Positions 1 to 13,271 of a stretch of DNA of 13,436 nucleotides are shown one piece after another. Each line of letters opens with the position of its first letter. Positions within the stretch are counted from its first letter, which is position 1. A program made the translations under genes and the position numbers. The stretch covers positions 1 to 13,436 of the forward strand of contig CAWEPZ010000007.1 in assembly GCA_963811105.1 (NCBI GenBank), written 5' to 3'. The notes below the pieces were generated by a model. The model was not told where the DNA came from. It was given only the letters and a program-made list of their open reading frames with translations, and did not search any database. This DNA comes from Candidatus Bathyarchaeota archaeon (lineage in GTDB: Archaea > Thermoproteota > Bathyarchaeia > Bathyarchaeales > Bathycorpusculaceae).

Positions 1-51
1 AGTGAAAAAGACTATTTGCGCAAAGTTCTAATGCGTCATCCTATCCACTAA
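1..51 (+). CDS. 3' end of an ORF entering the window (...SEKDYLRKVLMRHPIH*)
   Basis: Frame 1 is open from base 1 to TAA at 49-51, just ahead of the next ORF. Confidence 0.4.
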   Translation, partial: SEKDYLRKVLMRHPIH

Positions 52-63
52 TGCATAGGATAG

Positions 64-567
64 GTGCGAATTATGGCTCACAGTTCACCAAACTATATGA
101 AAAATTACCTTGGCCAGAGACGGTTAAAGGCGAAATTTGCTAAGTCTTTAGCCTTTGTCAAATGGTACCAAGACTATAAAAATAATAAGAAAGTGATGTT
201 AGAAATGTTGGAGCGCACAATTAAAGTAGCTGTGTTTGTGCCCAAGTTCCGCAGAGATTACGAAATCATGAGCCCCTTGGAGGCCAAAGAAAAAATTGAC
301 CTAGAAGGCTGGAAAAAAATACTACTCCAAAGAAACTTTGTTATTGGCGATGATGAACTCAATCGTTACTCTATTTTAGATGATGCCACAGAGAAAGTGG
401 TTTCTCTGGAAATGGAGTTAGCTGCAAAATACAAAATTAATCCGTTGTACATTCTCGCCGACATCAATATTTGCCTTGAGGGAGACCAAAAAAGTGGAAA
501 AGTCTATGAAGAAATTGCTGTTTCTCCTGAAATCTACCTAGAATTTTCGGAGGGAAAAATTCAATGA
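64..567 (+). CDS. Hypothetical protein, 167 aa (start GTG 64 or ATG 73)
   Basis: Long ORF in AT-rich DNA; stop overlaps the next start (ATGA 564-567); no recognised motif. Confidence 0.7.
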   Translation: MRIMAHSSPNYMKNYLGQRRLKAKFAKSLAFVKWYQDYKNNKKVMLEMLERTIKVAVFVPKFRRDYEIMSPLEAKEKIDLEGWKKILLQRNFVIGDDELNRYSILDDATEKVVSLEMELAAKYKINPLYILADINICLEGDQKSGKVYEEIAVSPEIYLEFSEGKIQ

Positions 568-860
568 GTGTTAAAGATCTGACAATCGAGCAGCTCAAAG
601 AGAAGCGTTGGGCGATCATGAACGATAATAAGCCATTGCCAAATGGCGGATGGGGACTTACACGCGAAGAATGGGATCAAGCTCTCGCCCTAGATGAAGA
701 ATTAACAAGACGCGGCTACACCGGCGACAGAGCACCAAAAGGCCAAGAACTTACAGCCGAGGAGTGGAATGAAGCTACAGCCGTCAATGAGGCAATAAAG
801 AACTATCAGCTGAAAATAGGAATCTCTTCCAAGGATGCCAAGAATAAGGTGAAACCTTGA
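564..860 (+). CDS. Hypothetical virus-like protein, 98 aa, with an internal repeat (LTREEWDQA / LTAEEWNEA)
   Basis: GGAGG upstream; ATGA and TTGA overlaps at both ends. Confidence 0.75.
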   Translation: MSVKDLTIEQLKEKRWAIMNDNKPLPNGGWGLTREEWDQALALDEELTRRGYTGDRAPKGQELTAEEWNEATAVNEAIKNYQLKIGISSKDAKNKVKP

Positions 861-1033
861 AAGAAAACTATGAACCTTATACTGACAAAGATGGTGTAGA
901 ATGGCAATTTGATTCTTGGCCGGGGCTACTATATACCAGTGTGGAAAACTTCTTGCATCTACAACATTTGGAAGAGGTAGGAAAAACGGGTGATACTCTA
1001 ACAGTTACTTATTCTTATCAGAAAAAACCATGA
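857..1033 (+). CDS. Small hypothetical protein, 58 aa (MKENYEPYTDKDGVEWQFDSWPG...QKKP), not in the ORF track
   Basis: TTG at 857 overlaps the upstream stop; AAGGTGA RBS-like motif just upstream; frame open to TGA 1031-1033. Confidence 0.6.
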   Translation: MKENYEPYTDKDGVEWQFDSWPGLLYTSVENFLHLQHLEEVGKTGDTLTVTYSYQKKP

Positions 1034-1079
1034 CAACAGAACACCCTTCTTCAAATGTTGGCAAGACTAAGGTGAAAAA

Positions 1080-1214
1080 ATGAGTGAGTGTGTGTATGAG
1101 TATGAGTGTATAGAGTAGAAAAAGAAGAAAGATAAAGTCAAGTGTCCTTTTTGCCCTGCGGAATTTGATACTGTGATAGAAATGATTAGGCACGATGATG
1201 CAACCCATGAGTGA
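1080..1214 (+). CDS. Small C2H2 zinc-finger protein with an in-frame TAG at 1116-1118
   Basis: AAGGTGA then ATG 1080; translation MSECVYEYECIE*KKKKDKVKCPFCPAEFDTVIEMIRHDDATHE* gives C-x2-C-x12-H-x4-H with the canonical F position. Confidence 0.65.
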
Positions 1215-1285
1215 AAAACCATTACAAAAAAAGTCTTGATGGCTCATAAATAAAGCATCCACAACACTATTTCTGAGGAATTCAA

Positions 1286-1534
1286 ATGAAAACTGAAGAT
1301 CTAACGGATGAGGATTTACGCGTTATAAGTAATGTGTATTTAAATTTTAGATGTGTGGATTTGGCTGAAAGTGGAGAAACGCGTGAAGCGTGTGAAGCGC
1401 TTAATGTTGCGGATGTTAAACTGCTTTTGGGTAGGTTAATTAGGCTGAATTCGCGTAATATTAAGCGGCGTTTTTACGTATGTACTAACTGTGTTATACG
1501 TTCTAACGCGGTTAGTGTTCTAAGTAAGCTTTAG
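1286..1534 (+). CDS. Hypothetical protein, 82 aa, with C-terminal CxxC
   Basis: GAGG upstream; followed by an oligo-T tract. Confidence 0.6.
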   Translation: MKTEDLTDEDLRVISNVYLNFRCVDLAESGETREACEALNVADVKLLLGRLIRLNSRNIKRRFYVCTNCVIRSNAVSVLSKL

Positions 1535-1547
1535 TTAGTTTTTTTTG
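1535..1547 (+). terminator. Oligo-T archaeal terminator candidate
   Basis: T run immediately after the last + strand gene, ahead of a convergent gene. Confidence 0.4.
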
Positions 1548-1614
1548 AAGGTTAAATATGCCTTCCGGGAATTCCCAAGGAATCTTTAGCGCCCAAAACG
1601 AGTCAGGCCGTCAC

Positions 1615-1926
1615 TCATGTTTTTGTTCGCAATATTTTATAAAGGCATCGCCAACCGGGGTCACTGTTAGCACTCGGCATCCTCCACTTCTGCTAATATG
1701 CCCAAAACTGCTTTCTAGTATTCCCCAGCTCTCTCGCTTCCCTGATAAATTGATTAACTATATGAAAATCAGTGAGCTCACATAACTTTTTGAAATTAAT
1801 AGGTTCGTTAGCTAGGTTATGCTCCTTTACGGCTTTCAACATTACATAATGAGTGTTTTTCGCGTTGGCTCTGTTTAATGTTAAGGTTCCTCTTTTTTTG
1901 GTTTCACTTGACTTTCCAATTGGCAT
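1615..1926 (-). CDS. Winged helix-turn-helix DNA-binding protein; one frameshift near 1722
   Basis: Removing one base at GGGGAA turns ...EARELGNTRKQFWAY* into ...EARELGILESSFGHISRSGGCRVLTVTPVGDAFIKYCEQKT*, a typical wHTH wing plus T-x-x-G ending. Confidence 0.65.
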
Positions 1927-1950
1927 AATTCAAAATTAGCATGTTTCAAC

Positions 1951-1956
1951 TATAAA
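1951..1956 (-). promoter_or_regulatory. TATA box (TTTATA) of the wHTH gene; probably a leaderless transcript
   Basis: Lies 25 nt upstream of ATG 1926; no RBS in between. Confidence 0.55.
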
Positions 1957-1986
1957 GATTACTATTAGCAGCTGCGAACATATTTG

Positions 1987-2031
1987 AAAAAATCAAACAA
2001 AAAAGAAAAACTTTAGCGGAAAACAACCGCT
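1987..2031 (-). terminator. Pilin gene terminator: AGCGG-N7-CCGCT hairpin followed by long T tracts
   Basis: agcgg 2015-2019 pairs with ccgct 2027-2031; A tracts at 1987-2010 read as oligo-T on the minus strand. Confidence 0.65.
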
Positions 2032-2033
2032 TA

Positions 2034-2491
2034 TTAAGACTACGAATGATGACGAAATGAAACTGACCGCCCGCCTGTGTATACTGTTACTGTGTAGGCT
2101 CCTGAAGTGAGAGCTGTTGAATATGTCCAGTTACTGATATCGAGGTTTCCCTTCGTTAGAGCAAGTGGAGTTTCCATACTGGTACTGTGAGTTAAGTACA
2201 GCGCCACTGTGTTTCCTGATGAGTCTTTAATTATCAACCGTTTATTGTTACAGTGTCCTGCCTGTATGATTGAGCATAACTGTTATATGCCTGTGGACTT
2301 CAATTAATACTTGCTGCTTGTACTGAAATTTTTTCTTGTGCTGCTGTTCCGCCTCCAGTCATGGTTGCTAATGTTCCGCTTGTAAACATGTAAACAACTA
2401 CACCGGCGATAACTGCAATTGCAATGAGAATAAGAGTTGCGAATATTGGTGAAATGGCTTTACTATTCTTGATAAATTTCTTGAAATTCAT
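2034..2491 (-). CDS. Archaeal type IV pilin (archaellin/pilin N-terminal domain), about 150 aa, split by several indels; 3' end approximate
   Basis: Class III signal peptide MNFKKFIKNSKA|ISPIFATLILIAIAVIAGVVVYMF, then QEKISVQ; continues in ORF 2040-2237 (IIKDSSGNTV...LTSGAYTVTVYT); RBS GGAGGTG at 2504-2510. Confidence 0.85.
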
Positions 2492-2548
2492 TTTTTATCT
2501 AAACACCTCCTTCTGAAATTTGGTGTGTGACACTCCATTCTGGGAGTT

Positions 2549-2591
2549 TGCTTATAAACTGAGTTTCTCACCAATACAGATTACAAATTCA
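2549..2591 (-). promoter_or_regulatory. Repeat A copy 1, pilin promoter (GAAACTCAG-TTTATAAG on the minus strand)
   Basis: tgcttataaactgagtttctcaccaatacagattacaaattca; TATA about 60 nt upstream of the pilin ATG; near-identical to 3114-3155. Confidence 0.75.
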
Positions 2592-2686
2592 GTTCTGTCG
2601 AAATATTATCCTATGAAAAATCAGCCTATTTAGCAATTCTTAACTGCCAAATATGTTAAAAGCTAAACTACACTTTTCAATAGAGG

Positions 2687-3013
2687 TTATTTTTGCAGTT
2701 TCTTTTTTTGATAATATATTGCTTGTTTAGCTCTAATAGCCTCTCGATTTTGTTCATAGTATTTTGCCATTTTCGCTTTTTTTTGTGGATATTTTTCTGC
2801 TAATTTAGCTAACATATCTTCTCGATTAAGTCGATAATACTCTAATGATTGCGCTGTAAGTTCTGCTTTTTGTTCTTCAGAGTACAAATCGTATTTTTTC
2901 TTAGAATATTTACTGAAGTAGTCTAGGCGTCTCTTGCTTCGTTGTTGCTCTTCTGGTCCCCAACTACCTGAATTGTAAGGCAAATCGGTCAACGCTTGTA
3001 TTTCTTTAACCAA
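2687..3013 (-). CDS. Basic K/Y-rich protein with repeated YY-x2-NRE-x-(M/I)-x-AK motifs
   Basis: YYRLNREDMLAK, YYEQNREAIRAK, YYQKKK. This motif style is common in viral proteins and in N-terminal tails of HNH proteins, but no nuclease domain is present. Confidence 0.65.
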   Translation of the reverse strand: MVKEIQALTDLPYNSGSWGPEEQQRSKRRLDYFSKYSKKKYDLYSEEQKAELTAQSLEYYRLNREDMLAKLAEKYPQKKAKMAKYYEQNREAIRAKQAIYYQKKKLQK

Positions 3014-3055
3014 GCTGCATTTAAAATTTATTAATCAATCCTTCAGTTAACAGAT

Positions 3056-3102
3056 TTTTTTGTTGGTGGATTAGTGCTAGTATCGTCATCGTAATCTTAA
3101 GA
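3056..3102. repeat. Repeat B copy 1 (direct repeat of 8047-8093)
   Basis: ttttttgttggtgGattagTgctagtatc vs ttttttgttggtgTattagCgctagtatc is 27/29 identical; 39/47 ungapped overall by manual count. Confidence 0.8.
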
Positions 3103-3113
3103 CATTAGGCGTC

Positions 3114-3155
3114 TGCTTATAAACTGAGTTTCCTCCAATACAGATTACAAATTCA
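3114..3155 (-). repeat. Repeat A copy 2 (duplicated TATA-containing element)
   Basis: tgcttataaactgagtttcctccaatacagattacaaattca; differs from copy 1 only at a central tca/ct. Confidence 0.9.
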
Positions 3156-3334
3156 AGATTCTGTTAGCTTGTCAGGAGGTAAAAAAGGGGTGTTAAGCGT
3201 CAGGTTGTGGTGACTTGTATTTTTTTGCTCCGAATCGGCGTTTGCGGGTGATATCTCCACTCTGGAACGGGTTCAAATCTCCACTCATCAAATGGATATA
3301 CTTAAAGAATTCAACAAAAAATCGGTCTTAGCTA

Positions 3335-6300
3335 TCATCGTTTTTTCTTGATTATTAATGCAAATGTTGCACTTATTGCTGAAATAACGGCGACTGCCAA
3401 TGCGTAAAGGTATAGGGGTGTTGTTGTGAGTTGTGAAAGAGGTGAAGTTGAAGGCGATGTTGGTTGGTTTGGACTTGGGGATGGAGTTGCTGGGATTACA
3501 GTGGGACTTGGAGTTGGGGTTGAAGTTGGAATTGGTGAAGCTATAGGCATAGAGGTTACTGTGGGCTTAACTGTCGGAGTTACTGAAGGTGATGGCGATG
3601 GACTTGGCTGTGGGAGTTGCGGTAGGAGTAGGCGTAGGAGTTGTTTCTAATAGTGATAGTATCTGAATAGGTTATGCTAGTTAATCCTGCGTTGTTTTTA
3701 ATTTGATAATAAACGGATTTCACTCCTTCTCCAGACGTAAGAGACCATGCAGCGGGTTGTTGCAGGCGTCTCCCAATTTTCATTGTCCCAAACACCATCA
3801 TTACTATAAGCGGACTTGAGATACACCTGAAATAGCATCATGTATAGGTCAAAGTCAAAATCACCGACACTGAAGTCGTAGAAGCGTCACCACTATTGAT
3901 AATTATAGAACCTGTTGGAGGAGTTGTTGTTAATGTGATAGTGTCGGAGTAAGTTTGACTAAATAACCCGATATTATTCTTGACCTGGTAATAGACCGTT
4001 TTTACTCCATCCCCTGGCACTAAAGACCACAATTTAGTCGCAAGCAGGGACATCCCAATCCTCCGTGTCCCAAAAGCCGTCATTGCTGTATCTTACCTGA
4101 GACACACTAGAAAAGGCATCAGTATAAGTCAGGGAAAGCGTTACTGAAGTTGAAATCGTAAAAGCATCACCACCATTTACAGCAATTGAACCTGTGGGTG
4201 CAACTGTGCCCAATATGATAGTGTCCGAGTAAGTTGGGGAAACTAATCCGGCGTTGTCTTTGATTTGATAGTAAACCGTTTTTGTTCCTTCTCCCGATGT
4301 TAAATTCCATGACTTAGACACCGAAGGAAACTCCCACGCTTCACTATCCCAGATACCATCATTGCTATAGCGGACTTGATAGACACCTGACGTTGCTTCA
4401 TTCGCACCCGAGGTTAAGGTCACAGAGATTGAAGAGGTGTAAGCATCACCATCATTAATTAGGATGAAACCAGTCGGCGCGGTCTTATCCAGTTTTATCC
4501 CATTGAGGATATTGTGTGGTAACTCTTCGTGTCCAAGGTTGTCCATGCTCCAATACTCCAATGTGTTGTTGGCGCCCTCAGTATCTATGAACGGTTGACC
4601 GTTTTTGTTAACAGATTTTAGTTGAACCATCATTGATTATATAGTAAGTATCTTTAACAAATGTAAACTCGTCGTCTGTGGCTGAGAGTTTGATTGTAAA
4701 GTCTGATGTGTGCCATAAGCCGTCGTAATTGTGAATTGTGTCTGGAGGCCCATCAGGTGGCACATTCACAGTTAAACCAGAACCCGACAAGATATAGCCT
4801 CCATCATTTGTTTGGATTACGGAATAGGCAACTTCATCGCCTGGTCCCCCATATGTTTTGTTCCACAGTTGATTGCCCACTGAGTCAGTTTTAACTAGCC
4901 AAAAATCTTTGCCTCCAGCACCAAAGGAATTAGTGTAGCCTGCTAAAGCGTAGCCTCCATCATTCGTTTGGATTACGGAATAGGCAACTTCATCGCCTGG
5001 TCCCCCATATGTTTTGTTCCACAGTTGATTGCCCACTGAGTCAGTTTTAACTAGCCAAAAATCTTTGCCTCCAGCACCAAAGGAATTAGTGTAGCCTGCT
5101 AAAGCGTAGCCTCCATCATTCGTTTGGAGTTTAATGTTGAACTCTTTAGATTGAATAATCAGGTGACTTGCTTGCATTGTCCCGTTCCAACCTCTAAAAC
5201 CTACTGCACCAATAGGGTGAGAGCTGTCTTGTACCTCCAAAACCTTAACTCCATCCACAAATAATTGCAAACTATTGCCAATAGCCACCGCTGAAACCAA
5301 ATACCACCTCCCCGCCACCACCTCACTTGCAGACCCGGAATAAGTAAGCTCTTGATATACTCCATTCACAACTTTGGAAATACTGTACTTATGCCCCCAA
5401 CAACCTAAACCCAGCCAGTAAAAGTTGCCAGAGTCAGTGTATCTAACAACAAGACTTGTGTCATTAGAGCTAACCTCACGCATGTTCGCTGTTGCTTGAT
5501 AAGACATCCAATTTGTATGGTCAGCCCAAATCATATTCTCTTGATTGTTCGCTGAATTACATTGAAGCACACCTCCTGAAACTGACCAAACACCCTTAAC
5601 CACAGTCCATTTGCTTAAATCGGCAAAATCGTCGCTAAACAAAACTAGGTCGCCTGGATTAACAGAGAACATATTGCTTGTTCCAGATTTACCGCCGCCA
5701 CTTGTTGAGATTGAAATGCCTGTTCCTGCTTGAGAGAGAGTCACCAAACCCGTCCAAACACCGGAGACAAATGTGGTAGTACTTGTTGGACTTATGGCTC
5801 CCAAAGATACAGTTAAGTTGTTGTTTCCATTATAGTTGGTTACCGTATTACCATTTGAGTCTTTAGCCGTTATCGTTATGCTGAAAGCAGAGCCAGCATT
5901 CTGGGGACTACTAATAACACTGAAGACAAATGCATTCACAGGTTTACCAGAATTCACCGTCAAAAAAGTAACAGATCCGGTACCACTATTATATTTGCTA
6001 TCTCCACTGTAAACCACTCGGAACTGAAAACTACCAGCAGACAAAGGGATATATGTCGTAGAAGCAAAACCACTATTATTCAAAAATACCAATGAGCCAA
6101 TAGTGTTCCAACCGCTGCCATTAATATTCACCTGAAAACTTGCAGTACCAGAAGGAGTAGCGCCCCCACCGGAAACAGTAACAGATAACGACAAAGAAGT
6201 ACCGACATTAGTAGAGCCCGAAGGACTCAAAGTTGGTGCAGGAACAGACGCATTTTGAGCAAGCATATATTGACTTATTTTTAACAAAGGGTCACCAAAT

Positions 6301-7570
6301 ATGTTCATTCCATAAAACCATTTAGGGTCTGAGTCAGCCCACATTATGGACCATGATTTGAAAGCATCTCCGATTGACTTTCCTTGGCCTAAAGGTTGAT
6401 AAAAGTCCCAGAAATTATACATGCTACCTGTTTTAGTTGAACCGACAGCTAAAAGCCCCCAGTTATTATCCGAAAAGGATGGAACCTGCTAAATTATTTG
6501 TTTCTGTAAATCTTGTTCCTGAACAAACAAATAAATTGTAAAATAGGGCTTTAGGATTAGCTGTGGAATAATAAGATGAAGAAACAGATTCGGACTGCCA
6601 TGCTCCATTAATTTTAAAAGTATGACTTGTTGAGCTTCCATGGCACATTAATTGCACCCATTCATAAGAGTTGTATATAATCTGTTTTTATAATCAGTTG
6701 CGTTTGTAGTTGCGTATTCTTTTACCAAAATGGTGTTTTTATATGCTTGTTGAACTGCAAGATTGGTTTCATCAGCACTGCCAGTCCAATCATCATCTAC
6801 ATATACTAACGCTTGGCGAGAAGCAACTAGGTTACCTATTCTATAGTTATGGTCTTTTATGAGATAGTTGTTAATGTATTGAGTTTCATTGCCCGTTATA
6901 CTGGAAGCATCTATTCTAGCTACCCAAATCTCCGGTTGCATTGGAAAGGTATAATTATCAAATACTCCATTGCCGTTTGTGTCTGTCCAGTTACAATCTA
7001 AGTCCATGTAGATAATAGTCTATTGGAAATTTCTCATATCCCCAAGGTGAAGGATTAGTCATTTCATACCAAGCTGTTGGCAAATTTCCGATTAAAATAG
7101 CACCTTGTAAGCTACCGTTGTAGTAACCTTGTTGAAGAAGGGTTCTAACAGTTAAAGCAGAAGATCCTGAAGATAGGGTGATAATAGAAACGTTATAACC
7201 ACTCGATTGTATGTCATTGGAAAACTGAGTTAAAGTAGTTTTTATGGTTGGGTAAATATTTTGGTTTACTATTAACCATATTTGATTTTTAGATTCTGCA
7301 GGAGGAAGAAGACTCGGAAATTTGGGAATTTGCTGCGCTTGCATTGCCGGTTGAATCTACTCTGGTGTCATAGTTCTTAGCCAATGAACCATCAGGAGAA
7401 TACCATAGAAGGGGGTTAAGATTGTTGGTGTCACTTATGGAAGAGGGTTTTTGGGTCGCGGTTGCGATATTTGTCGATGTAACTTCAAAAATCGAAATAT
7501 AAGAGATCAACAATAAAAAGGCTAACGCAACTCCGAGACTATTTTTTCTGCTCAAAGCCTCTCTACTCAA
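3335..7570 (-). CDS. Large secreted, membrane-anchored multidomain protein (~1400 aa), split by about 10 frameshifts. Order: signal peptide, gingipain-like peptidase C25, Ig-like domains, ConA/DUF1080-like domain, beta-propeller blades, three Ig-like repeats, PT/S linker, C-terminal TM
   Basis: Consecutive minus-strand ORF fragments join. C25-like motifs: GAILIGNLP, FPIDYY(Y)MDLD, PEIWVARID, MCHGS (His ~6640), LFVCS (Cys ~6524), GSTK, IFGDP. Ends in LYLYALAVAVISAISATFALII-KKKR. Confidence 0.8.
3655..4480 (-). repeat. Three diverged ~95 aa Ig-like coding repeats (PTGSI.IN.GD..T.S.SV.L...V.QVRYSNDG.WD...W.L..G.G.K.VYYQ.K.N.GL.S.TYSDTI)
   Basis: The motifs recur in ORFs 4034-4633, 3838-4083 and 3580-3801. 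Confidence 0.8.
4795..5128 (-). repeat. 156-bp in-frame tandem repeat (2 copies plus 22 bp) encoding 52-aa propeller blades QTNDGGYALAGYTNSFGAGGKDFWLVKTDSVGNQLWNKTYGGPGDEVAYSVI
   Basis: Units start at 4795, 4951 and 5107; the two full copies differ at one base (4809). Confidence 0.95.
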
Positions 7571-7714
7571 TTAACTCATTAGCTTCAGTTAGCTCTTAAA
7601 GTTTGTGAAAAATATTTTTGATGTTGACTTTACTGGGTTCAAATATTTGCATTAGATAATAATTGATTTTGTAATTTAGAAAAAGATTCAGATTGTGTGG
7701 AGGCTTAGGAGGTT

Positions 7715-8023
7715 ATGGGTAAGACTGTTCCTTCTTATCGGATGGCTTTGGAGTTTGAGATTCATAGGTGGAAAAGATTTAGAAATGCTCTGCCAAACGA
7801 GGAAGCACGAGTTGCCTTTGATGAGCTGATGGATATGTGTAGGGATAATGGGATGGCAAGTGGAAACGCGTGTAACCCAATAGTTTTCGAGCCTATGGTG
7901 ATGTCTATTCTGTTGGCTCAACAGAAGAAATTGCGGGAACTCGAGTACAAACTAAACGATGTACTTTGGCAAAAAATATGTACCCAACCTCAAACGGAGA
8001 CTTCACAGAACCCGTTCGGTTAA
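7715..8023 (+). CDS. Conserved small helical archaeal protein resembling the PolB2-associated family (arCOG07300-like)
   Basis: GGAGGT RBS at 7708-7713; MGKTVPSYRMALE..I.RW..FR.AL...FD.L...FEPMVMSILL pattern. The family assignment is from memory. Confidence 0.65.
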   Translation: MGKTVPSYRMALEFEIHRWKRFRNALPNEEARVAFDELMDMCRDNGMASGNACNPIVFEPMVMSILLAQQKKLRELEYKLNDVLWQKICTQPQTETSQNPFG

Positions 8024-8046: not shown

Positions 8047-8093
8047 TTTTTTGTTGGTGTATTAGCGCTAGTATCATTAATGCAATCTCAAGA
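8047..8093. repeat. Repeat B copy 2, upstream of the packaging module
   Basis: Matches 3056-3102; contains palindrome TAGCGCTA; preceded by palindrome TTAACTAGTTAA (8020-8031) and T tracts. Confidence 0.8.
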
Positions 8094-8154
8094 GTTAAAG
8101 GCAATTAGGACCACATATTGGTGGTGTACTCATTCTATTACTAGGTTGACTGTC

Positions 8155-8614
8155 GTGAGTAAGCAAGACTTTAAGCTCTTGGAGGATGTTAAGCCAGGGG
8201 ACCTTATTTCTGTTGATTGGTGCGATGCATCTACTGGAAAAAGCAGCATGAACGGTGGCGCCGTAGATGTTCCGGTGCAAAGCTGGGGCATCTTTCTAGG
8301 CGTAATAGCAGGCCGCGTTCAACACATCATTTTAGCCCAGAACAGTTTCTCCTTCACGGAAACAGTCTTTGACCTAGATTATACTTCTATCCCGGTGGGG
8401 TGGACAGTCGGAGTAAAAATTCTAGTTCGCGCAAACGTAAACAGGGAAATTGCTGACTGCATGATTCACAGCTTCGCCAAAAGCAGTTCAGGACAGTCTC
8501 GCTCAAGCATTATCTCATCTAATCTTCTAAACCCACGTGCTCCACAGGATATTCATGTACCATCGCATGCAAAGGGTGAGAATGAGGATGAGGATGCCTT
8601 GGCAGAAAATCTAA
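8155..8614 (+). CDS. Virus-type beta-rich (SH3/Sm-like) hypothetical protein; likely start GTG 8155; 3' end uncertain
   Basis: KPGDLISVDWCDAS...VQSWGIFLG...IILAQN...SIPVGW matches the V-x-W-x-D-A...IP pattern of many small phage proteins. Track ORF 8080-8691 probably fuses this gene with the next. Confidence 0.6.
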
Positions 8615-8849
8615 TTAAACGTGCCCTCACTCGACATCGACAAGTCCGCGGCCGCCCAACCCTGAAGTTGAATTACCCGACGAACGCCTAGTTCTAGGTG
8701 TAGAATTTGCGATTGCAATGGCCATTTGCCTCTCAATCCTCGAGGTTGCCCACATGGCTATATTGGGCAGCTGGAACAGCGAAATTTTCGCAACCATCTC
8801 AGGCCTAGTCGGAATCATAATCGGGTTATTTGTGGGGAAAAAACATTGA
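8599..8849 (+). CDS. Small two-TM membrane protein (holin-like); frameshift near 8660
   Basis: TTG 8599 after GAGGATGAGG; MAENLIKRALTRHRQVRGRP / EVELPDERLVLGVEFAIAMAICLSILEVAHMAILGSWNSEIFATISGLVGIIIGLFVGKKH*. Confidence 0.6.
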
Positions 8850-8872
8850 ACCCTAAAATAGTTTCTCAGAAA

Positions 8873-8917
8873 ACCTGGAACACCTGGAACAGCTGGAACA
8901 GAATTATAAGCGGAACA
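8873..8917 (+). repeat. Three tandem 9-mers A(C/G)CTGGAAC, then TTATAAG and a fourth GGAACA
   Basis: acctggaac acctggaac agctggaac at 8873-8899; TATA-like at 8904-8910; cggaaca at 8911-8917. Confidence 0.8.
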
Positions 8918-8955
8918 ATAGCTCGAGAAGTCTGCAGCAGGACAGGAAGATCTTA

Positions 8956-9400
8956 ATGGCGAAGGGCAAGCCTTGGACCGTTGAAGAGGAAAGGCAACTT
9001 CGAGAGCTCGTAACAGAAAAAAAGTCCATGCGTTCTATTGCAAAGATTATGGGTAAAACCCTTATGGCTGTACGGTTGAAAGCAGCTCGCTTAGGCTTAG
9101 AAGAAGATGATGAGAGGTGAAAAAAACACGCCATCATCATCTACCCTTCGAAGTTAGTTTTGCCCGATGAGTTGCCTTCAATTGAAGAAAAACTCAAGAC
9201 TTTGGTTGGCGCCTTGGATGCAACTTGAAACGGGCAAATTGGATAAACTTGGTGTTTTGCGTCTACGCACAATCATTAGGGCGTGAAAGTGTACCAGGAA
9301 CTCATAGCAGAATACGTCGATTACCGGGGCATTGAGACTGAAATGCTGGAATGGAGGGACAAGTATGCGGACCTTGCGAAAAAACACCACGAACCTTCCG
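8956..9400 (+). CDS. N-terminal HTH (Myb/GcrA-like) plus helical domain; putative terminase small subunit; 3 or more frameshifts; end approximate
   Basis: MAKGKPWTVEEERQLRELVTEKKSMRSIAKIMGKTLMAVRLKAARLGLE / KLVLPDELPSIEEKLKTLVGALDA / LETGKLDKLGVLRLRTII / GVKVYQELIAEYVDYRGIETEMLEWRDKYADLAKK; lies directly upstream of terL. Confidence 0.6.
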
Positions 9401-10815
9401 GCCAAATAAATTCATTGATTCCCGAGGTAAGACACGCGGGCATATTGGTTCTTTACAGGCGGATAGACTCAGCAGGGTTGAGACGCTAAAGACGGATCCG
9501 CTTGAGTTTTTCCGTCAAATCTTAGGCGTAGAGCCGACAGACTACGAGAAGGAGCTTATCGAGCTTTTCCAAAAGAACCAGTTTGTGGCAGCCCGGTGGA
9601 GCCGACAATCAGGCAAGAGCTTCACAACCTCTGGAATTCTTCTTAATTACGCCCTAGTGAACCCTAATTCCTACATTGGGGTAGTGGGTCCTAGTTGGCG
9701 CCAAACAAAACTTGTCATTCGACGCATTGGGGATTTTGCTAGGCGGCTGCCGCCTGGCTCCAAAATTACTGTGCAGAAAACCAAGATATCTTGTCCTAAT
9801 GGAAGCATCATTGAGGCTTTCCCAAACAACCCGGATACGATCCGAGGGCCTACGTTGCACGTGGTCTATGCTGACGAATTCAACTTCATACCAAACGCCG
9901 AAGACCTCTATGATGCAGCTCTTTTCACTTTGGGAACTACTAACGGGAAGTTCATCTGCACCAGCACTCCATGGAACACGGATAGCCTCTTTTGGCGGAT
10001 CTGCAACAAATCTGACTTTGACGATTTCGCCAGGCATCACGTAACATGGGAGCGAGCGCAAGAGCCTAACGGACCCTTGAAGCTGGGGATTTTGGAGAAG
10101 ATTCGCAAGCAGCTGCGCGATGATCCTGCCCGGTGGCGCCGAGAAATGGAGGCCGAGTGGGCAGAGGATGAAGACGTCTGGCTATCCCAAAACCTCATCG
10201 CCGCCTGTGTCGGCACAGTAAAAAACTGTAAGGAAGACCTGCAGGAATTTGACATTAACGGTACAGCGGAAGGGGAATTCTACGCTGGCCTGGATCCTGC
10301 CCAAACAAGAGACTACCACGTCCTAAGCGTAATTGAGAGAAAGGATGAGCAGCTGCTGCTTAGGCACTTGAAGATTTTTCCACATCCAACCTATGACGCC
10401 TATGTCCTTGGCTACCTGAAAACACTGCAGGACCGCTGGGGTGGATTCCGACAAATCAGAGTAGATGTCACTCGAGAAGGACCCAGCTTCATAGCAGACA
10501 TGGAGAATGCCGGGATCAACAATGCTGAAGGAGTAATTTTTAGCTCGCCTAGGAAAAGTGAGATGGCAGCCCTGCTCAAGAAGCGCATGCAGGATAAACG
10601 TTTCTTTTATCCGCTGCTAAGCTGGGATCGCCCGTACCATGGGGACATCTGTAATGAATTCAATCTGGAACGATTTGCATCTGAGAAAGGACGGCGGATT
10701 AGCCTTTAGCCATCCTCAGGGCACTCATGATGATGTCTTTTGGGCTTCAGCCCTAGCCGTTTACGCTACTGTAAAAATGACGGTGTTTGACATGGAGGCC
10801 CTACATTTTGGCTAG
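9351..10815 (+). CDS. terL: Terminase large subunit (ATPase plus RNase H-like nuclease); one frameshift near 10680; start uncertain
   Basis: Walker A RWSRQSGKS, IRG, Walker B VVYADEF, coupling motif TSTP, nuclease YAGLD and RVDVT. The frame from 10681 gives LRKDGGLAFSHPQGTHDDVFWASALAV...FG* with the terminal HDD motif. Confidence 0.93.
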
Positions 10816-10819
10816 CGTT

Positions 10820-11137
10820 ATGGTTAGCCCTATGGTTAGTTTCTTCACAAGCTATGACTATTGGGAAGTGCACCTCGTGAATAATGAGAGAGGTCCTTGC
10901 GGAAAATGCCAATATTACGCTCAAGTCGGCATTCTAACCGGTGAGTGGCTGCAGGGCATGTTTCCCTGGCTAAAGATCGTCAATGATAACGAGATTAAAT
11001 GCAACATTCACCCAAACTGTCAATGTTATCTAAAGCGTGTTCTCTTGCCGTTTGATAAGCCAACTGTTCCCGATCCCGTGGCTGTTGTCACTGAAAGTAA
11101 GCAGCTGCTAGCCGATTACAAGTCAGGAGGGTACTAG
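10820..11137 (+). CDS. Stand-alone MuF/SPP1 gp7-like Cys/His domain protein
   Basis: CGKC...HPNCQC matches the CxxC...HPNCRC signature of MuF minor head proteins; ATG 10820 is 4 nt after the terL stop. Confidence 0.65.
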   Translation: MVSPMVSFFTSYDYWEVHLVNNERGPCGKCQYYAQVGILTGEWLQGMFPWLKIVNDNEIKCNIHPNCQCYLKRVLLPFDKPTVPDPVAVVTESKQLLADYKSGGY

Positions 11138-11139
11138 GC

Positions 11140-12616
11140 GTGAACAATCGAGATGATGTGCTTAAGATCCGTAAGCTCCGAAGGATCTACGATCGCGGTA
11201 AGGACAGATTTACTTTTCATGTTGAGTACGAAACTATAACGGAGATTACACCAAGGACCTTGGATGTTGCTGAAGCCTTTGGTCTAGGCATCGATGAGGC
11301 TCAAAAATTTCTTGTCCTAAACACTATTTTGCAGATTAGCCCTAGAGATATTGTGTTAGTTACGGGTGATAGTGGCAGCGGTAAGAGTGTTTTGCTGCGA
11401 GCTATCCGGGAAGATCTTGGCTCTGAAGCTGTAGATATGGCTGACGTCCACGTTGACGAGAACAAGCCGTTGATTGATACTATCGGCGCCACGATTGAAG
11501 AGGCCTTTGAGCTTCTCAGCAAGGTTGGGTTGAATGACGCTTTCCTATTTCTGAGGCCGTATAAGCAGCTGAGTGACGGCCAAAAATACCGGTATCGAGT
11601 GGCTAAACTCATTGAATCCGGAGCGCAATGGTGGCTCATGGATGAGTTTTGCGCCCTTCTGGACCGGGACACGGCCAAGATCATTGCGTTTAATGTTCAG
11701 AAATTGGCGAGGCAGCAGGGAAAAGCCGTCATCGTTGCAACCACTCACGGGGACCTGTTTGAGGATCTGGCGCCATCCGTAAATATTCACAAGCGCTTTG
11801 GCGAAGAAATTCAAATCGACTATTACCCAAACATCGCAAAAGCCGTATGCACCCTCATCAAAGAGATGAAAGTTGAAGAGGGCACCAGGGAGGACTGGGT
11901 AAAACTTTGCCGTTTCCACTATCGAGGGCACGGATTCTCTGTTGCAAGAAAGTTCTTCCGCGTAAGCAGAAACGGTGAGCTCTGCGGCGTCATTATTTAC
12001 TCCTATCCGCCTCCGGCATGCTACGGAAGAAGGATGGTTCTGCCCATAATGTCCATGCAGGAAATAAACCAGCAGCTGAGCACAATCAACCGAGTGGTCA
12101 TTCACCCAAAATACCGAACCATAGGTCTAGGAGCTAAATTAATTCAGGGAGAGTCTGCCGCTTGCCGGCACGCCGTACGTGGAGTTAATCGCAGTGATGG
12201 CTAAATATAATCCGTTCGCAGAAAAGGCAGGCATGCAAAAAATCACTCAACAAACCTACGTTGAGAGCGTATCCAAAGTTTCTAAGGCCCTGCAGAATTT
12301 AGGCTTCACCTTGCAGCTCCTAGGCAGCACCCACTACGTCGAGTCAAAGCTTCAAACCCTAAGTAGCCAAGAAATAAGTTGCCTCAAGGAGGCATTTGGC
12401 AAGAATGGCCATCCGAGATTCAAAAAAGTCTTCTCCGGGAAAGGCGAGCCGTATGGGAAAGGATCCGCCTACCTTCAGCATCTGCAGGATGCGGACCTCA
12501 CAAAAATGGCGAAGCTGATAAAGATCGCCAGCATGCTGCTGCAGACGAAAGTTTACTTATTTTGGAAGAAAAATTGCTTAACTTGCAAATTGCTTAAGTT
12601 AAGCAACGTGAATTAA
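11140..12616 (+). CDS. Soluble ABC-type ATPase fused to a GNAT acyltransferase (~490 aa); frameshift near 12148
   Basis: Walker A GDSGSGKS, signature LSDGQK, Walker B WLMDEF, H-loop ATTH; GNAT motif A RVVIHPKYRTIGLGAKL; the shifted frame continues ESLPLAGTPYVELIAVMAKYNPFAEKAGM. Confidence 0.88.
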
Positions 12617-12737
12617 AGGTGTTAAAAATGTGCCTGTTGTGCGCACGATTTACACAATATTGTGTATTTTTAAACATATTTAGGGTCGTTCAACTATGAA
12701 AAGTGTTAATTCAAAATGTGCGCATGACTTAAATCGT
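12571..12737. promoter_or_regulatory. Cluster of palindromes and repeats (operator or origin candidate)
   Basis: TTGCTTAA-g-TTAAGCAA at 12590-12606 with an extra half-site at 12574; perfect palindrome TACACAATATTGTGTA at 12651-12666; TGTGCGCAyGAyTTA at 12638 and 12717. Confidence 0.55.
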
Positions 12738-12769
12738 AAATCCGTATGTAATAGCAATTCATGCGAGAC

Positions 12770-12811
12770 GAAGGGGAAGAAAAATGGAGAGAAGGGGAAG
12801 CAAAATGGAGA
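12770..12811 (+). repeat. 21-bp tandem duplication covering an RBS and start codon
   Basis: gaaggggaagAaaaatggaga / gaaggggaagCaaaatggaga; in-frame ATGs at 12784 and 12805. Confidence 0.85.
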
Positions 12812-12960
12812 GATGTAGAACAAATATTAAGTTAAGCGTTGATGTGAAAAGGCGCGCAACTAACGCCGTTGAAGGTGGTAGTTTTAAAGGTATAACAACT
12901 TTGAGTGGGCTAGTAGAAATAGCGCTATAGGAAATTTTGGACAAGAAAAATGTACCCTAA
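12805..12960 (+). CDS. Ribbon-helix-helix-like DNA-binding protein with an in-frame TAG at 12928-12930, not in the ORF track
   Basis: MERCRTNIKLSVDVKRRATNAVEGGSFKGITTLSGLVEIAL*EILDKKNVP**: alternating ribbon RTNIKL, helix 2 SGLVEIAL-x-EIL, double TAA at 12958-12963. Confidence 0.6.
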
Positions 12961-13046
12961 TAATTCGCGACCTATAGGCCCGACCTGGCTTGAGTTGCCT
13001 GGCGTAAAGGCGTTTTAGCAGGTTTAGAAAAGAGTGCGGGATTGGG

Positions 13047-13271
13047 ATGAAAAGAAAAAACCCTGTTAAGGCGACTAGACATCAGAAGGACCTTCAGGCT
13101 GCAGCAATAATGATGCAGATATTCTTGGGTGGCTTAGCCCTTAATTTTAATTTTAATTGGCATGACCTTGAAGAGATCACCCAGAGAGCTATGTTTGAGT
13201 ATAAATCGAATATTGACGAGGTAAAGCTGCCGAAACAGAGGTTGAAGCGCAATGAGTACAACTCCAAATGA
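13047..13271 (+). CDS. Hypothetical protein, 74 aa
   Basis: Track ORF; overlaps the next ORF. Confidence 0.55.
   Translation: MKRKNPVKATRHQKDLQAAAIMMQIFLGGLALNFNFNWHDLEEITQRAMFEYKSNIDEVKLPKQRLKRNEYNSK

Follow-up and report, generated by a model that had tools for sequence, protein, structure and literature searches.

Introduction

Head-tail viruses described from Bathyarchaeia include a siphovirus-like provirus of 46.8 kb in a Bathy-6 genome, which its report assigns to a provirus type "common in Bathyarchaeia" (PMC11697101), as well as Fuxivirus and Kunpengvirus, of which Fuxivirus has 32 kb (PMC10848311). The present analysis concerns a DNA stretch of 13,436 bp from a Candidatus Bathyarchaeota archaeon (the window), which represents the entire contig C7 of a 3.49-Mb genome (15 contigs, 96.65% complete) and harbors a packaging module consisting of p6, p7, p1 (a helix-turn-helix (HTH) gene resembling the small terminase gene TerS), the large terminase gene (TerL), a short MuF-domain gene (mini-MuF) and p5, which encodes an ABC-type ATPase/GNAT protein. 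The SSU rRNA of this genome scores 1489 bits with the archaeal and 1103 bits with the bacterial model; the mcrA family was looked for and not found. In the initial annotation, the module had been regarded as a packaging motor without a head. According to the comparison with related loci, the region from 8049 to 12624 instead probably corresponds to the right-hand, packaging end of a compact head-tail provirus, of a family found in Bathyarchaeia, in a copy that is decaying, and its headless look is likely to arise from the viewing of a broken, isolated copy and not from a headless packaging system.

With the published Bathyarchaeia viruses, the intact relatives of the window module share the host group, the HK97 capsid, the portal, TerL, the tail tube, further tail genes and the integration into the chromosome. 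The elements investigated here are, however, smaller (a gene array of 14.3 kb, ~18 kb overall at locus L030), although the published supplements may list these proviruses. A further difference lies in the gene order, since TerS-TerL follows the tail genes and precedes the ABC/GNAT gene in the present family, and in the state of the window copy, which is broken and devoid of structural genes.

The second point of reference is phage Mu, the module of which comprises TerL (gp28), a DUF935 portal (gp29) and MuF (gp30). Many of the TerL homologues are named "phage FluMu gp28-like protein" by JGI, the portal candidates of the relatives appear to be of the Mu/DUF935 type, and the MuF-domain gene of the window follows TerL. 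In contrast to phage Mu, the portal candidate is located beside the capsid gene and not after TerL, no transposase or Mu-like replication genes were seen, and the MuF protein is a stand-alone C-terminal core of 105 aa that is present at 2 of the 82 loci analyzed.

Structural genes of the related proviruses

The TerL family comprised 1478 database proteins at E<=1e-3 with a typical length of 482 aa, the named members of which originated nearly all from Bathyarchaeia. Among 151 sampled Bathyarchaeia genomes, 65 gave a match to TerL, 44 to p5 and 19 to the capsid query; the respective numbers for the 20 genomes of the window's own taxonomic family were 13, 14 and 7. A total of 192 TerL loci was found, 80 of which were fetched, their open reading frames (ORFs) called and clustered and profiles built; together with the window and a second module copy on contig C6 of the same genome, 82 loci were compared. 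The initial annotation had proposed to score how often the module occurs without structural genes. In the resulting census, p5 or p6 was present at 46 loci (44 relatives, the window and the C6 copy): 31 of them contained structural genes within 10.5 kb upstream, seven lacked such genes despite a flank of at least 8 kb (five relatives, the window and the C6 copy), and the flanks of the remaining eight were too short to judge.

The upstream genes encode an HK97 major capsid protein (MCP; PF25209/PF05065, PHROG 267), a tail tube protein (PF18906, 5.4e-15), a Neck1/HK97 gp10 protein (PHROG 5), a YqbQ-like tail protein and a tape measure protein. In a genome of the same genus (G146), the entire array is intact, located on one strand and contiguous over 14.3 kb, with TerL and p5 of 482 aa each, in the order 242-aa and 142-aa proteins, capsid, p29, adaptor, X, p22, tube, chaperone, Neck1, tape measure, tail, p6, p7, p1, TerL, p5. 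In this virus family, the structural operon normally closes with TerL and, after it, the ABC/GNAT gene. The "permuted or decayed provirus", which had been named as the mundane alternative to a headless system, fits this layout; in the relatives, the module is immediately preceded by genes for capsid, portal and tail. On one complete chromosome (L030), the element measures ~18 kb overall and is bordered by host cytochrome genes to the left; one complete chromosome carries four capsid copies. Pfam recognized neither an integrase nor a replication gene in the single left arm that was inspected. The data point to a widespread family of very compact head-tail proviruses in Bathyarchaeia with an unusual gene order, in which the terminase is placed after the tail genes.

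The protein p29 (410 aa), the gene of which adjoins the capsid gene, is a candidate Mu-type portal: the named Atlas clusters closest to it were without exception portal families, and PF06074 (Portal_Mu) was present in 92% of the members of the best cluster (score 0.98). Pfam, PHROG and NCBIfam gave no match for p29, no tblastn match in phages was obtained and the PDB profile search was empty; hhalign aligned it collinearly with the DUF935-type portal of locus L057 over 273 columns, but without significance (probability 0.55, E 0.11). At L057, where only p1 and TerL of the module are present, this Mu/DUF935-type portal gene follows directly after TerL and was unseen by the profiles; the structural profiles used therefore miss other head modules. 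A 440-aa ORF after TerL at locus L038 gave no phage match.

Intact elements carry, on one strand, the genes of a scaffold-like protein, the HK97 capsid, the putative Mu-type portal p29, the adaptor, the tail tube, the chaperone, Neck1, the tape measure and a tail tip or fibre, followed by p6, p7, p1 (the presumed small terminase), TerL and p5. The HTH of p1 would bind the packaging site, and TerL, a T4/Mu-type ATPase combined with an RNase-H-like nuclease, would cut and pump the DNA. In the sublineage of the window, mini-MuF may act at the portal or head, as MuF domains do; with ATP and acyl-CoA, p5 would, following a published prediction, add an acyl group to DNA bases and thereby shield the viral DNA from restriction.

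State of the window copy and its counterparts in the same genome

Pfam and PHROG scans of 20 ORFs of the window detected no gene for a capsid, portal or tail protein, so that the absence of portal and capsid described in the initial annotation was borne out for the window, and no integrase or replication gene was recognized. The homology between the window and the C6 copy ends sharply at 8049 and 12624; att sites and direct, inverted or terminal repeats were found at neither limit in either copy. The window contained no tRNA genes or Rfam families, and its tandem repeats were confined to the gene of a 604-aa protein and to intergenic DNA. Contig C7 has no terminal overlap and is not circular, and its ends match no other contig end. 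Its module (Table 1) carries about eight disabling lesions and is most likely non-functional, because p6, p7, p1, TerL and p5 are each disrupted; mini-MuF is its only unbroken ORF. The genes and spacings listed in the initial annotation are real; its TerS call and its unbroken TerL motifs did not hold (see below).

Table 1. Features of the window discussed in the text.
Feature	Coordinates	Strand	Description
604-aa protein	4608-6422	-	Ig-like (Big_3_5) and LamG/3-keto-disaccharide-hydrolase-like domains
orf102	7715..8023	+	small repeated-family gene, followed by a T-rich stretch; weak PHROG 30126 match
p6	8080..8691	+	conserved protein, likely start near 8152; HMM match positions 3-113
p7 remnant	8608..8849	+	split over two frames by a -1 deletion at 8661
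p1	8956..9489	+	N-terminal HTH, C-terminal helical part/coiled coil; overlaps the TerL start
TerL, main frame	9351..10709	+	452 aa; ends early after a +1 insertion at 10679
TerL, C-terminal part	10681..10815	+	44 codons out of frame (10681-10812, ..RKDGGLAFSHPQGTHDDVFWA..), TAG 10813-10815
mini-MuF	10820..11137	+	105 aa, CxxC ... HPNCxC; ATG 10820, stop 11135-11137; intact
p5, N-terminal part	11140..12204	+	ABC-type ATPase and first GNAT half; cut by a +1 insertion at 12146
p5, C-terminal part	12143..12616	+	remaining GNAT and helical C-terminal domain, in another frame

The C6 copy spans the equivalent of 8049-12624 at 93% identity, with frameshifts at positions that differ from those of the window. 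The assembly has divided a third copy between the heads of contigs C3 and C14; in its C3 portion (p6-p7-p1 and a partial TerL), decayed tape measure, p71, Neck1 and adaptor genes are located 14-20 kb upstream on the same strand. The search of the rest of the genome for portal, capsid and tail genes, as suggested by the initial annotation, revealed an intact MCP gene and a portal candidate split in two on contig C15, which also carries adaptor, Neck1, tape measure and p71. Remnants of tail genes occur on C3, C10, C12 and C1, TerL and p5 are otherwise present as fragments only, and overall ~30 fragments exist in the genome beside the module copies.

The arrangement on C3 bears on the possibility that the window provirus was interrupted rather than truncated, its head and tail genes being situated beyond the contig start, split from p6 by inserted DNA and decayed. 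The intervening DNA of C3 shares the segment 2838-3251 with the window (97-98% identity) as well as an orf102 copy, and the window, a whole contig of 13.4 kb, offers just 8 kb upstream of p6. On the other hand, the positions 1-7600 resemble no gene of the 80 relatives' loci, the ends of the contig match no other, and the structural cluster of C15 ends without overlap with C7, so that an interrupted provirus of this kind is considered unlikely.

Among the lesions of the window copy, there are a TGA created by substitution and insertions outside homopolymers. Long ORFs are normal genome-wide (406 of at least 500 aa), and there is therefore no general indel problem in the assembly. We infer that the lesions are real; that the frameshifts are assembly errors in a repeated region is possible, if doubtful.

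Several observations weigh against the interpretation of the window module as a decaying provirus end. Both copies of the own genome, window and C6, lack structural genes for 8-10 kb upstream, and neither an integrase nor an att site was detected that could mark where the provirus ends. The structural-gene profiles were derived from the same fetched loci, and diverged structural genes could have been missed by them. Two of the five module-only relatives, L015 and L066, are fully intact and have no structural gene within 10 kb upstream; the other three are broken. The ratio of nonsynonymous to synonymous substitution rates (dN/dS), the estimation of which had also been proposed, amounted to 0.02-0.12 between the window and C6 copies (dS 0.2-0.46). 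Such low values indicate purifying selection almost until now and, in consequence, a very recent decay; alternatively, the frameshifts could be assembly errors in a repeat. The extra bases of the window at 8545/6, 9219 and 10679 are missing from the contigs of four other metagenome runs that cover these places, a result that fits a private pseudogene or an assembly error alike. The metagenome contigs gave no coverage of 12670-13059, from which nothing is concluded, and no RNA data set was listed among 22 runs. Finally, the shared sharp limits at 8049/12624 and the lineage-specific mini-MuF would also be explained by a self-standing cassette.

Such a cassette would be a functional, capsid-less, satellite-like unit of 4.6 kb (p6-p7-p1-TerL-miniMuF-p5) that is packaged in the heads of its full-length relatives, the frameshifts being long-read assembly errors. 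The common limits of the window and C6 copies, their lack of head and tail genes, their unique mini-MuF and their low dN/dS agree with this proposal, as do the intact module-only loci L015 and L066, the unbroken frames of the metagenome contigs and the presence of MCP and portal genes elsewhere in the genome. Against it stand the absence of any detected integrase, replication gene, att site or terminal repeat, the non-circular contig, the scattering of the module-only loci among complete ones in the TerL tree (see below), the substitution-made TGA and non-homopolymer insertions in a genome with a normal ORF length distribution, and the fact that the only capsid-portal cluster of this genome has a split portal. 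The cassette is accordingly regarded as quite unlikely. In a more specific form, the module would be a terminase-carrying, helper-dependent satellite with its own packaging specificity and a DNA-modifying enzyme that would borrow the heads and tails of full-length relatives in the same cell, the window and C6 copies forming a lineage marked by the acquired mini-MuF and the frameshifts being partly or wholly assembly errors; this version, too, is rather improbable.

Distribution of module-only loci in the TerL tree

The TerL tree was calculated with a quick IQ-TREE method for 77 rows, leaving out the C6 copy (broken), L064 (fusion) and three TerLs of less than 430 aa. The window was placed in a clade of nine rows (SH-aLRT 96) that included four loci with structural genes and two other module-only loci in addition to L011 (class-A, short flank) and L018 (p1-TerL-only, short flank). 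The label "module-only" required five changes for six rows: the headless copies are scattered among complete ones in this tree and appear not to constitute a lineage of their own. Yet, the window and C6 are sister copies with shared limits and a dN/dS of 0.02-0.12.

In comparison with phage satellites of the P4, PICI and PLE type, the genome resembles their situation in that packaging genes occur without a capsid, and capsid and portal genes are located elsewhere. The module differs from them: it showed neither an integrase, a replication initiator or a capsid-size redirection gene nor an att site or defined ends, its genes are broken and the headless copies form no clade in the tree.

Within the tree, a clade of 14 rows (L077, L080, L081, L083, L085, L086, L072, L074, L079, L082, L084, L087, L089, L090) consists of loci that contain only p1-TerL (TerL of 476-488 aa) and neither p5, p6 or p7 nor recognized structural genes within 10 kb upstream. 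Six of its members (L077, L080, L081, L083, L085, L086) are near-identical and originate from very close genomes; some loci of the clade are flanked by glycosyltransferase-like genes.

A terminase domesticated and kept by the host, either in the manner of a gene transfer agent (GTA) or as a defence system composed of the TerL nuclease and the GNAT modification enzyme, might be suggested by the 26 p1-TerL-only loci, including the 14-row clade, which mostly encode full-length TerL and have no recognized structural gene within 10 kb upstream. Likewise, packaging, head and tail genes are grouped compactly in the intact relatives (~14-18 kb), as in GTAs of the RcGTA type, and no integrase or replication gene was detected by Pfam in one left arm. 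However, a GTA would be encoded by a single, vertically inherited structural cluster, in contrast to the present module, which is multi-copy and inserted at different genomic sites (including the four capsid copies of one chromosome) and is accompanied by no structural genes in the window, where it is also broken. In PADLOC, p5 matched only generic ATPases and TerL remained without a match; the near-identical "syntenic" p1-TerL loci stem from very close genomes (branch lengths 0.005-0.016), and the p1-TerL-only locus L057 has the Mu-type portal right after TerL. Host domestication thus appears highly unlikely.

For none of the satellite, domesticated or GTA-like, and nuclease-plus-modification readings raised in the initial annotation was positive support obtained, given the absence of detected integrase, att sites and repeats, the scattered distribution in the tree and the approximately eight lesions. 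A decaying provirus fragment is an ordinary result, and there is no reason to list it among headless packaging systems as a new one.

Large and small terminase

The TerL of the window matches Pfam Terminase_6N (PF03237; 8.7e-15, residues 84-283) and PHROG 2 (8.4e-37) and is 82% identical to the intact 482-aa TerL of L013; the ATPase domain of the TerL of another relative (L016) aligns with that of the T4-type gp17 (3ezk) at 2e-11. Both motifs of a packaging ATPase, Walker A and Walker B, are present in the N-terminal part. In the main TerL frame, SRQSGKS corresponds to Walker A, VVYADE to Walker B and GLDPAQ to the first acidic motif of the nuclease.

TerL had been stated to keep all ATPase and nuclease motifs. 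With respect to the nuclease, this statement had to be abandoned: the extra base at 10679 places the last ~44 residues, HDD included, out of frame, so that the RNase-H-like acidic motifs are not all contained in one open TerL frame of the window. The out-of-frame part is matched by the residues 448-491 of L016 TerL at 89% identity (tblastn) and contains the last conserved acidic motif, GTHDDVFWA. In a relative, this stretch lines up with GYHDDL of gp17, over a part of the alignment that lacks significance by itself; the Asp of the HDD motif is presumed to be a catalytic nuclease residue. Between the window and C6 copies, dN/dS of this C-terminal part is 0.022. The extra base at 10679 is missing from the covering contigs of the four metagenome runs (in run X2 at 9.8/12.2 depth). 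A programmed frameshift in TerL was considered and rejected, the relatives and metagenome contigs being all single-frame. In the window, TerL is accompanied by no intact small terminase, portal or capsid gene, whereas the relatives possess them. At L064 (8909-11386; contig binned as Methanocella), an 825-aa ORF represents the N-terminal part of protein X fused to TerL; as the locus lacks the whole tail block and p6-p7-p1, it is suggestive of a deletion derivative, and the binning may be wrong.

The gene p1 (median of 150 aa) is located directly upstream of TerL and overlaps the TerL start at 80 of the 82 loci. Its position and architecture suggest that it encodes the small terminase, and a weak match to a GcrA-type HTH was obtained for the homologue in L015 (1.1e-3). 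The p1 gene of the window is a pseudogene with an in-frame TGA at 9118-9120 and indels at 9127, 9149, 9219 and 9279; a frame-shifted stretch of 60 nt holds three further stops, so that the translation contains four internal stops.

Pieces resembling p1 were located at 31 places in the own genome (e.g. C2:222512-223072, C8:86930-87400, C11:961018-961524). They far outnumber TerL, and several are followed by only the first 90-150 TerL codons. Dozens of such small-terminase-like remnants point to a host lineage that has been heavily colonized by this virus family. A short derivative consists of the N-terminal HTH part of p1 (to ~9164-9186) fused to the last ~80 nt of p5 (from ~12537). In addition to 8952-9172 of the window, this p1-p5 junction was observed at C11:334702-335458, C11:617480-617676, C11:573560-573901, C1:104811-105000, near the end of C13 and at C9:7360-7953, i.e. 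at six or more places in the genome and on C9 once as a 95-bp tandem array; a contig of metagenome run X6 also carries a p1-p5 join (9145 to 12539). The copies are 82-92% alike over only ~130-300 bp, and one old deletion form has therefore been multiplied.

Mini-MuF

The spacings given in the initial annotation, 4 nt from the TerL stop to the start of mini-MuF and 2 nt from the mini-MuF stop to the GTG of p5 at 11140, are correct if TerL is read to the stop at 10813-10815, a reading across the frameshift. Mini-MuF sits between TerL and p5 and not beside a portal gene.

Mini-MuF had been described as a MuF-only domain, a designation that is reasonable if it is understood as a remote, stand-alone homologue of the domain core only. 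A phmmer search gave 123 homologues (E<=1e-3). In the alignment A3 of 42 rows (the query and 41 of these matches), C38, C41, H75 and C78 are invariant, and 13 of the 42 rows matched PF04233 (Phage_Mu_F; best 3.4e-6), no other family recurring; the query itself had no Pfam match even at E<=5. In the Atlas, nine of 30 mini-MuF matches belonged to clusters carrying PF04233 (46% of the members in the listed cluster; score 0.92-0.94). The dN/dS of 0.118 between the window and C6 copies indicates purifying selection on this gene, which was found in none of the 80 relatives. At three of these loci (L015:11362-11745, also L017 and L020), a winged HTH protein of ~127-131 aa (HTH_45, 8e-12) fills the gap between TerL and p5, which seems to be a slot for variable small genes.

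The ABC-ATPase/GNAT protein p5

In the relatives, p5 is a single ORF of 479-521 aa directly downstream of TerL, in which an ABC ATPase is combined with a GNAT and, at the C-terminus, a helical domain (PF00005 at 1.5e-10 and Acetyltransf_1/7); GDSGSGKS, LSDGQ and DEF are invariant. The ABC-GNAT fusion reported for the window was correct in its start and its domains; however, the gene is split here by the insertion at 12146, so that ABC and GNAT are not united in one polypeptide as in the relatives. The N-terminal part matches Pfam ABC_tran and Acetyltransf_1 as well as PHROG 11143 and 293 (positions 3-337 of 481 in the hidden Markov model (HMM) of p5), and the C-terminal part is matched in frame 2 by the residues 335-478 of L016 p5 (tblastn; HMM positions 336-479).

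According to family and PDB matches, the N-terminal half of p5 is a true ABC nucleotide-binding domain. The best viral match of the AF2 model of p5 (pLDDT 83) was the GNAT protein of Leptospira phage LE4 (365 columns, E 1.5e-18), and Mom of a Salmonella phage was matched at rank 42; the PDB fold search with this model retrieved ABC domains only and nothing for the GNAT and C-terminal half. Homologues of p5 are labeled "ABC-type ATPase with predicted acetyltransferase domain" by JGI, and a literature search by the database names of the family gave nothing on it. With tblastn, 95 phage records were obtained, and in 18 of these the match extended over at least 80% of the query; among the phages listed, p5 was 31-41% identical to genes of SSU5-like, nickie-like, Stenotrophomonas and Rhizobium phages. 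The gene order in Pseudomonas phage nickie is ParB-like, methyltransferase, ABC, hypothetical, GNAT-part, hypothetical, DNA-binding, TerL, portal, hypothetical, capsid; the record of Escherichia phage Cyrano ends with ParB, ParB-like nuclease, ABC, "MK0520 ... acetyltransferase" and a DNA-binding gene.

GNAT proteins coupled with an ABC ATPase are predicted to give a DNA base an acyl modification that is uncharacterized (Iyer et al. 2021, PMC7824862, citing Iyer et al. 2013). The p5 gene belongs to a known type of phage gene and, in analogy to this published prediction, encodes a putative DNA-base modifier: it shares the two-domain architecture of the predicted acyltransferases and, with nickie, the neighborhood of the terminase. 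The phage genes differ in being located upstream of TerS-TerL, often split in two and with ParB-like genes alongside, whereas p5 of the window family is placed downstream of TerL and is one protein of ~480 aa with an additional helical C-terminal domain. In distant Bathyarchaeia families, p5 is found upstream of TerL, as in phages. The location of p5 near the terminase in archaeal proviruses and bacteriophages points to a link between DNA modification and packaging.

p6, p7 and the region upstream of the module

The ORF 8155-8691, which had been taken for TerS, is p6, a conserved protein without HTH or family match. The p6 family is present at 40 of the 82 loci (~137 aa; 133-169 aa in intact relatives). 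In the window, a +1 insertion near 8545 alters the C-terminus and runs the frame into the p7 region; the extra base is missing from the C6 copy and from metagenome contigs. The p7 protein of the relatives (39 loci) has ~80 aa and a hydrophobic stretch; p7 of L013 matches the window at 8608-8652 in frame 1 and at 8649-8843 in frame 3 (tblastn). No significant Pfam, PHROG, NCBIfam or PADLOC family was assigned to p6, p7 or p1, the weak GcrA-type HTH hint for p1 apart. In the intact arrays, the tail genes are followed by p6 and the small hydrophobic p7 and these by the terminase, a position at which lysis genes are frequently found in phages.

The gene orf102 exists in ~7 copies in the own genome and is located directly upstream of the module in the window and in the copy at 422 kb of C2. 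In L066, it is found just downstream of p5; its cluster (93) comprises L022, L066 and L089. The "host-type cargo" reported upstream of the module was not confirmed: the region consists of small ORFs without family matches and the 604-aa Ig-like/LamG-type protein on the opposite strand, the gene of which contains a 156-bp tandem duplication of 99% identity (repeat 4795-5128). Large secreted or surface proteins (clusters 21, 34 and 91) flank many of the related loci.

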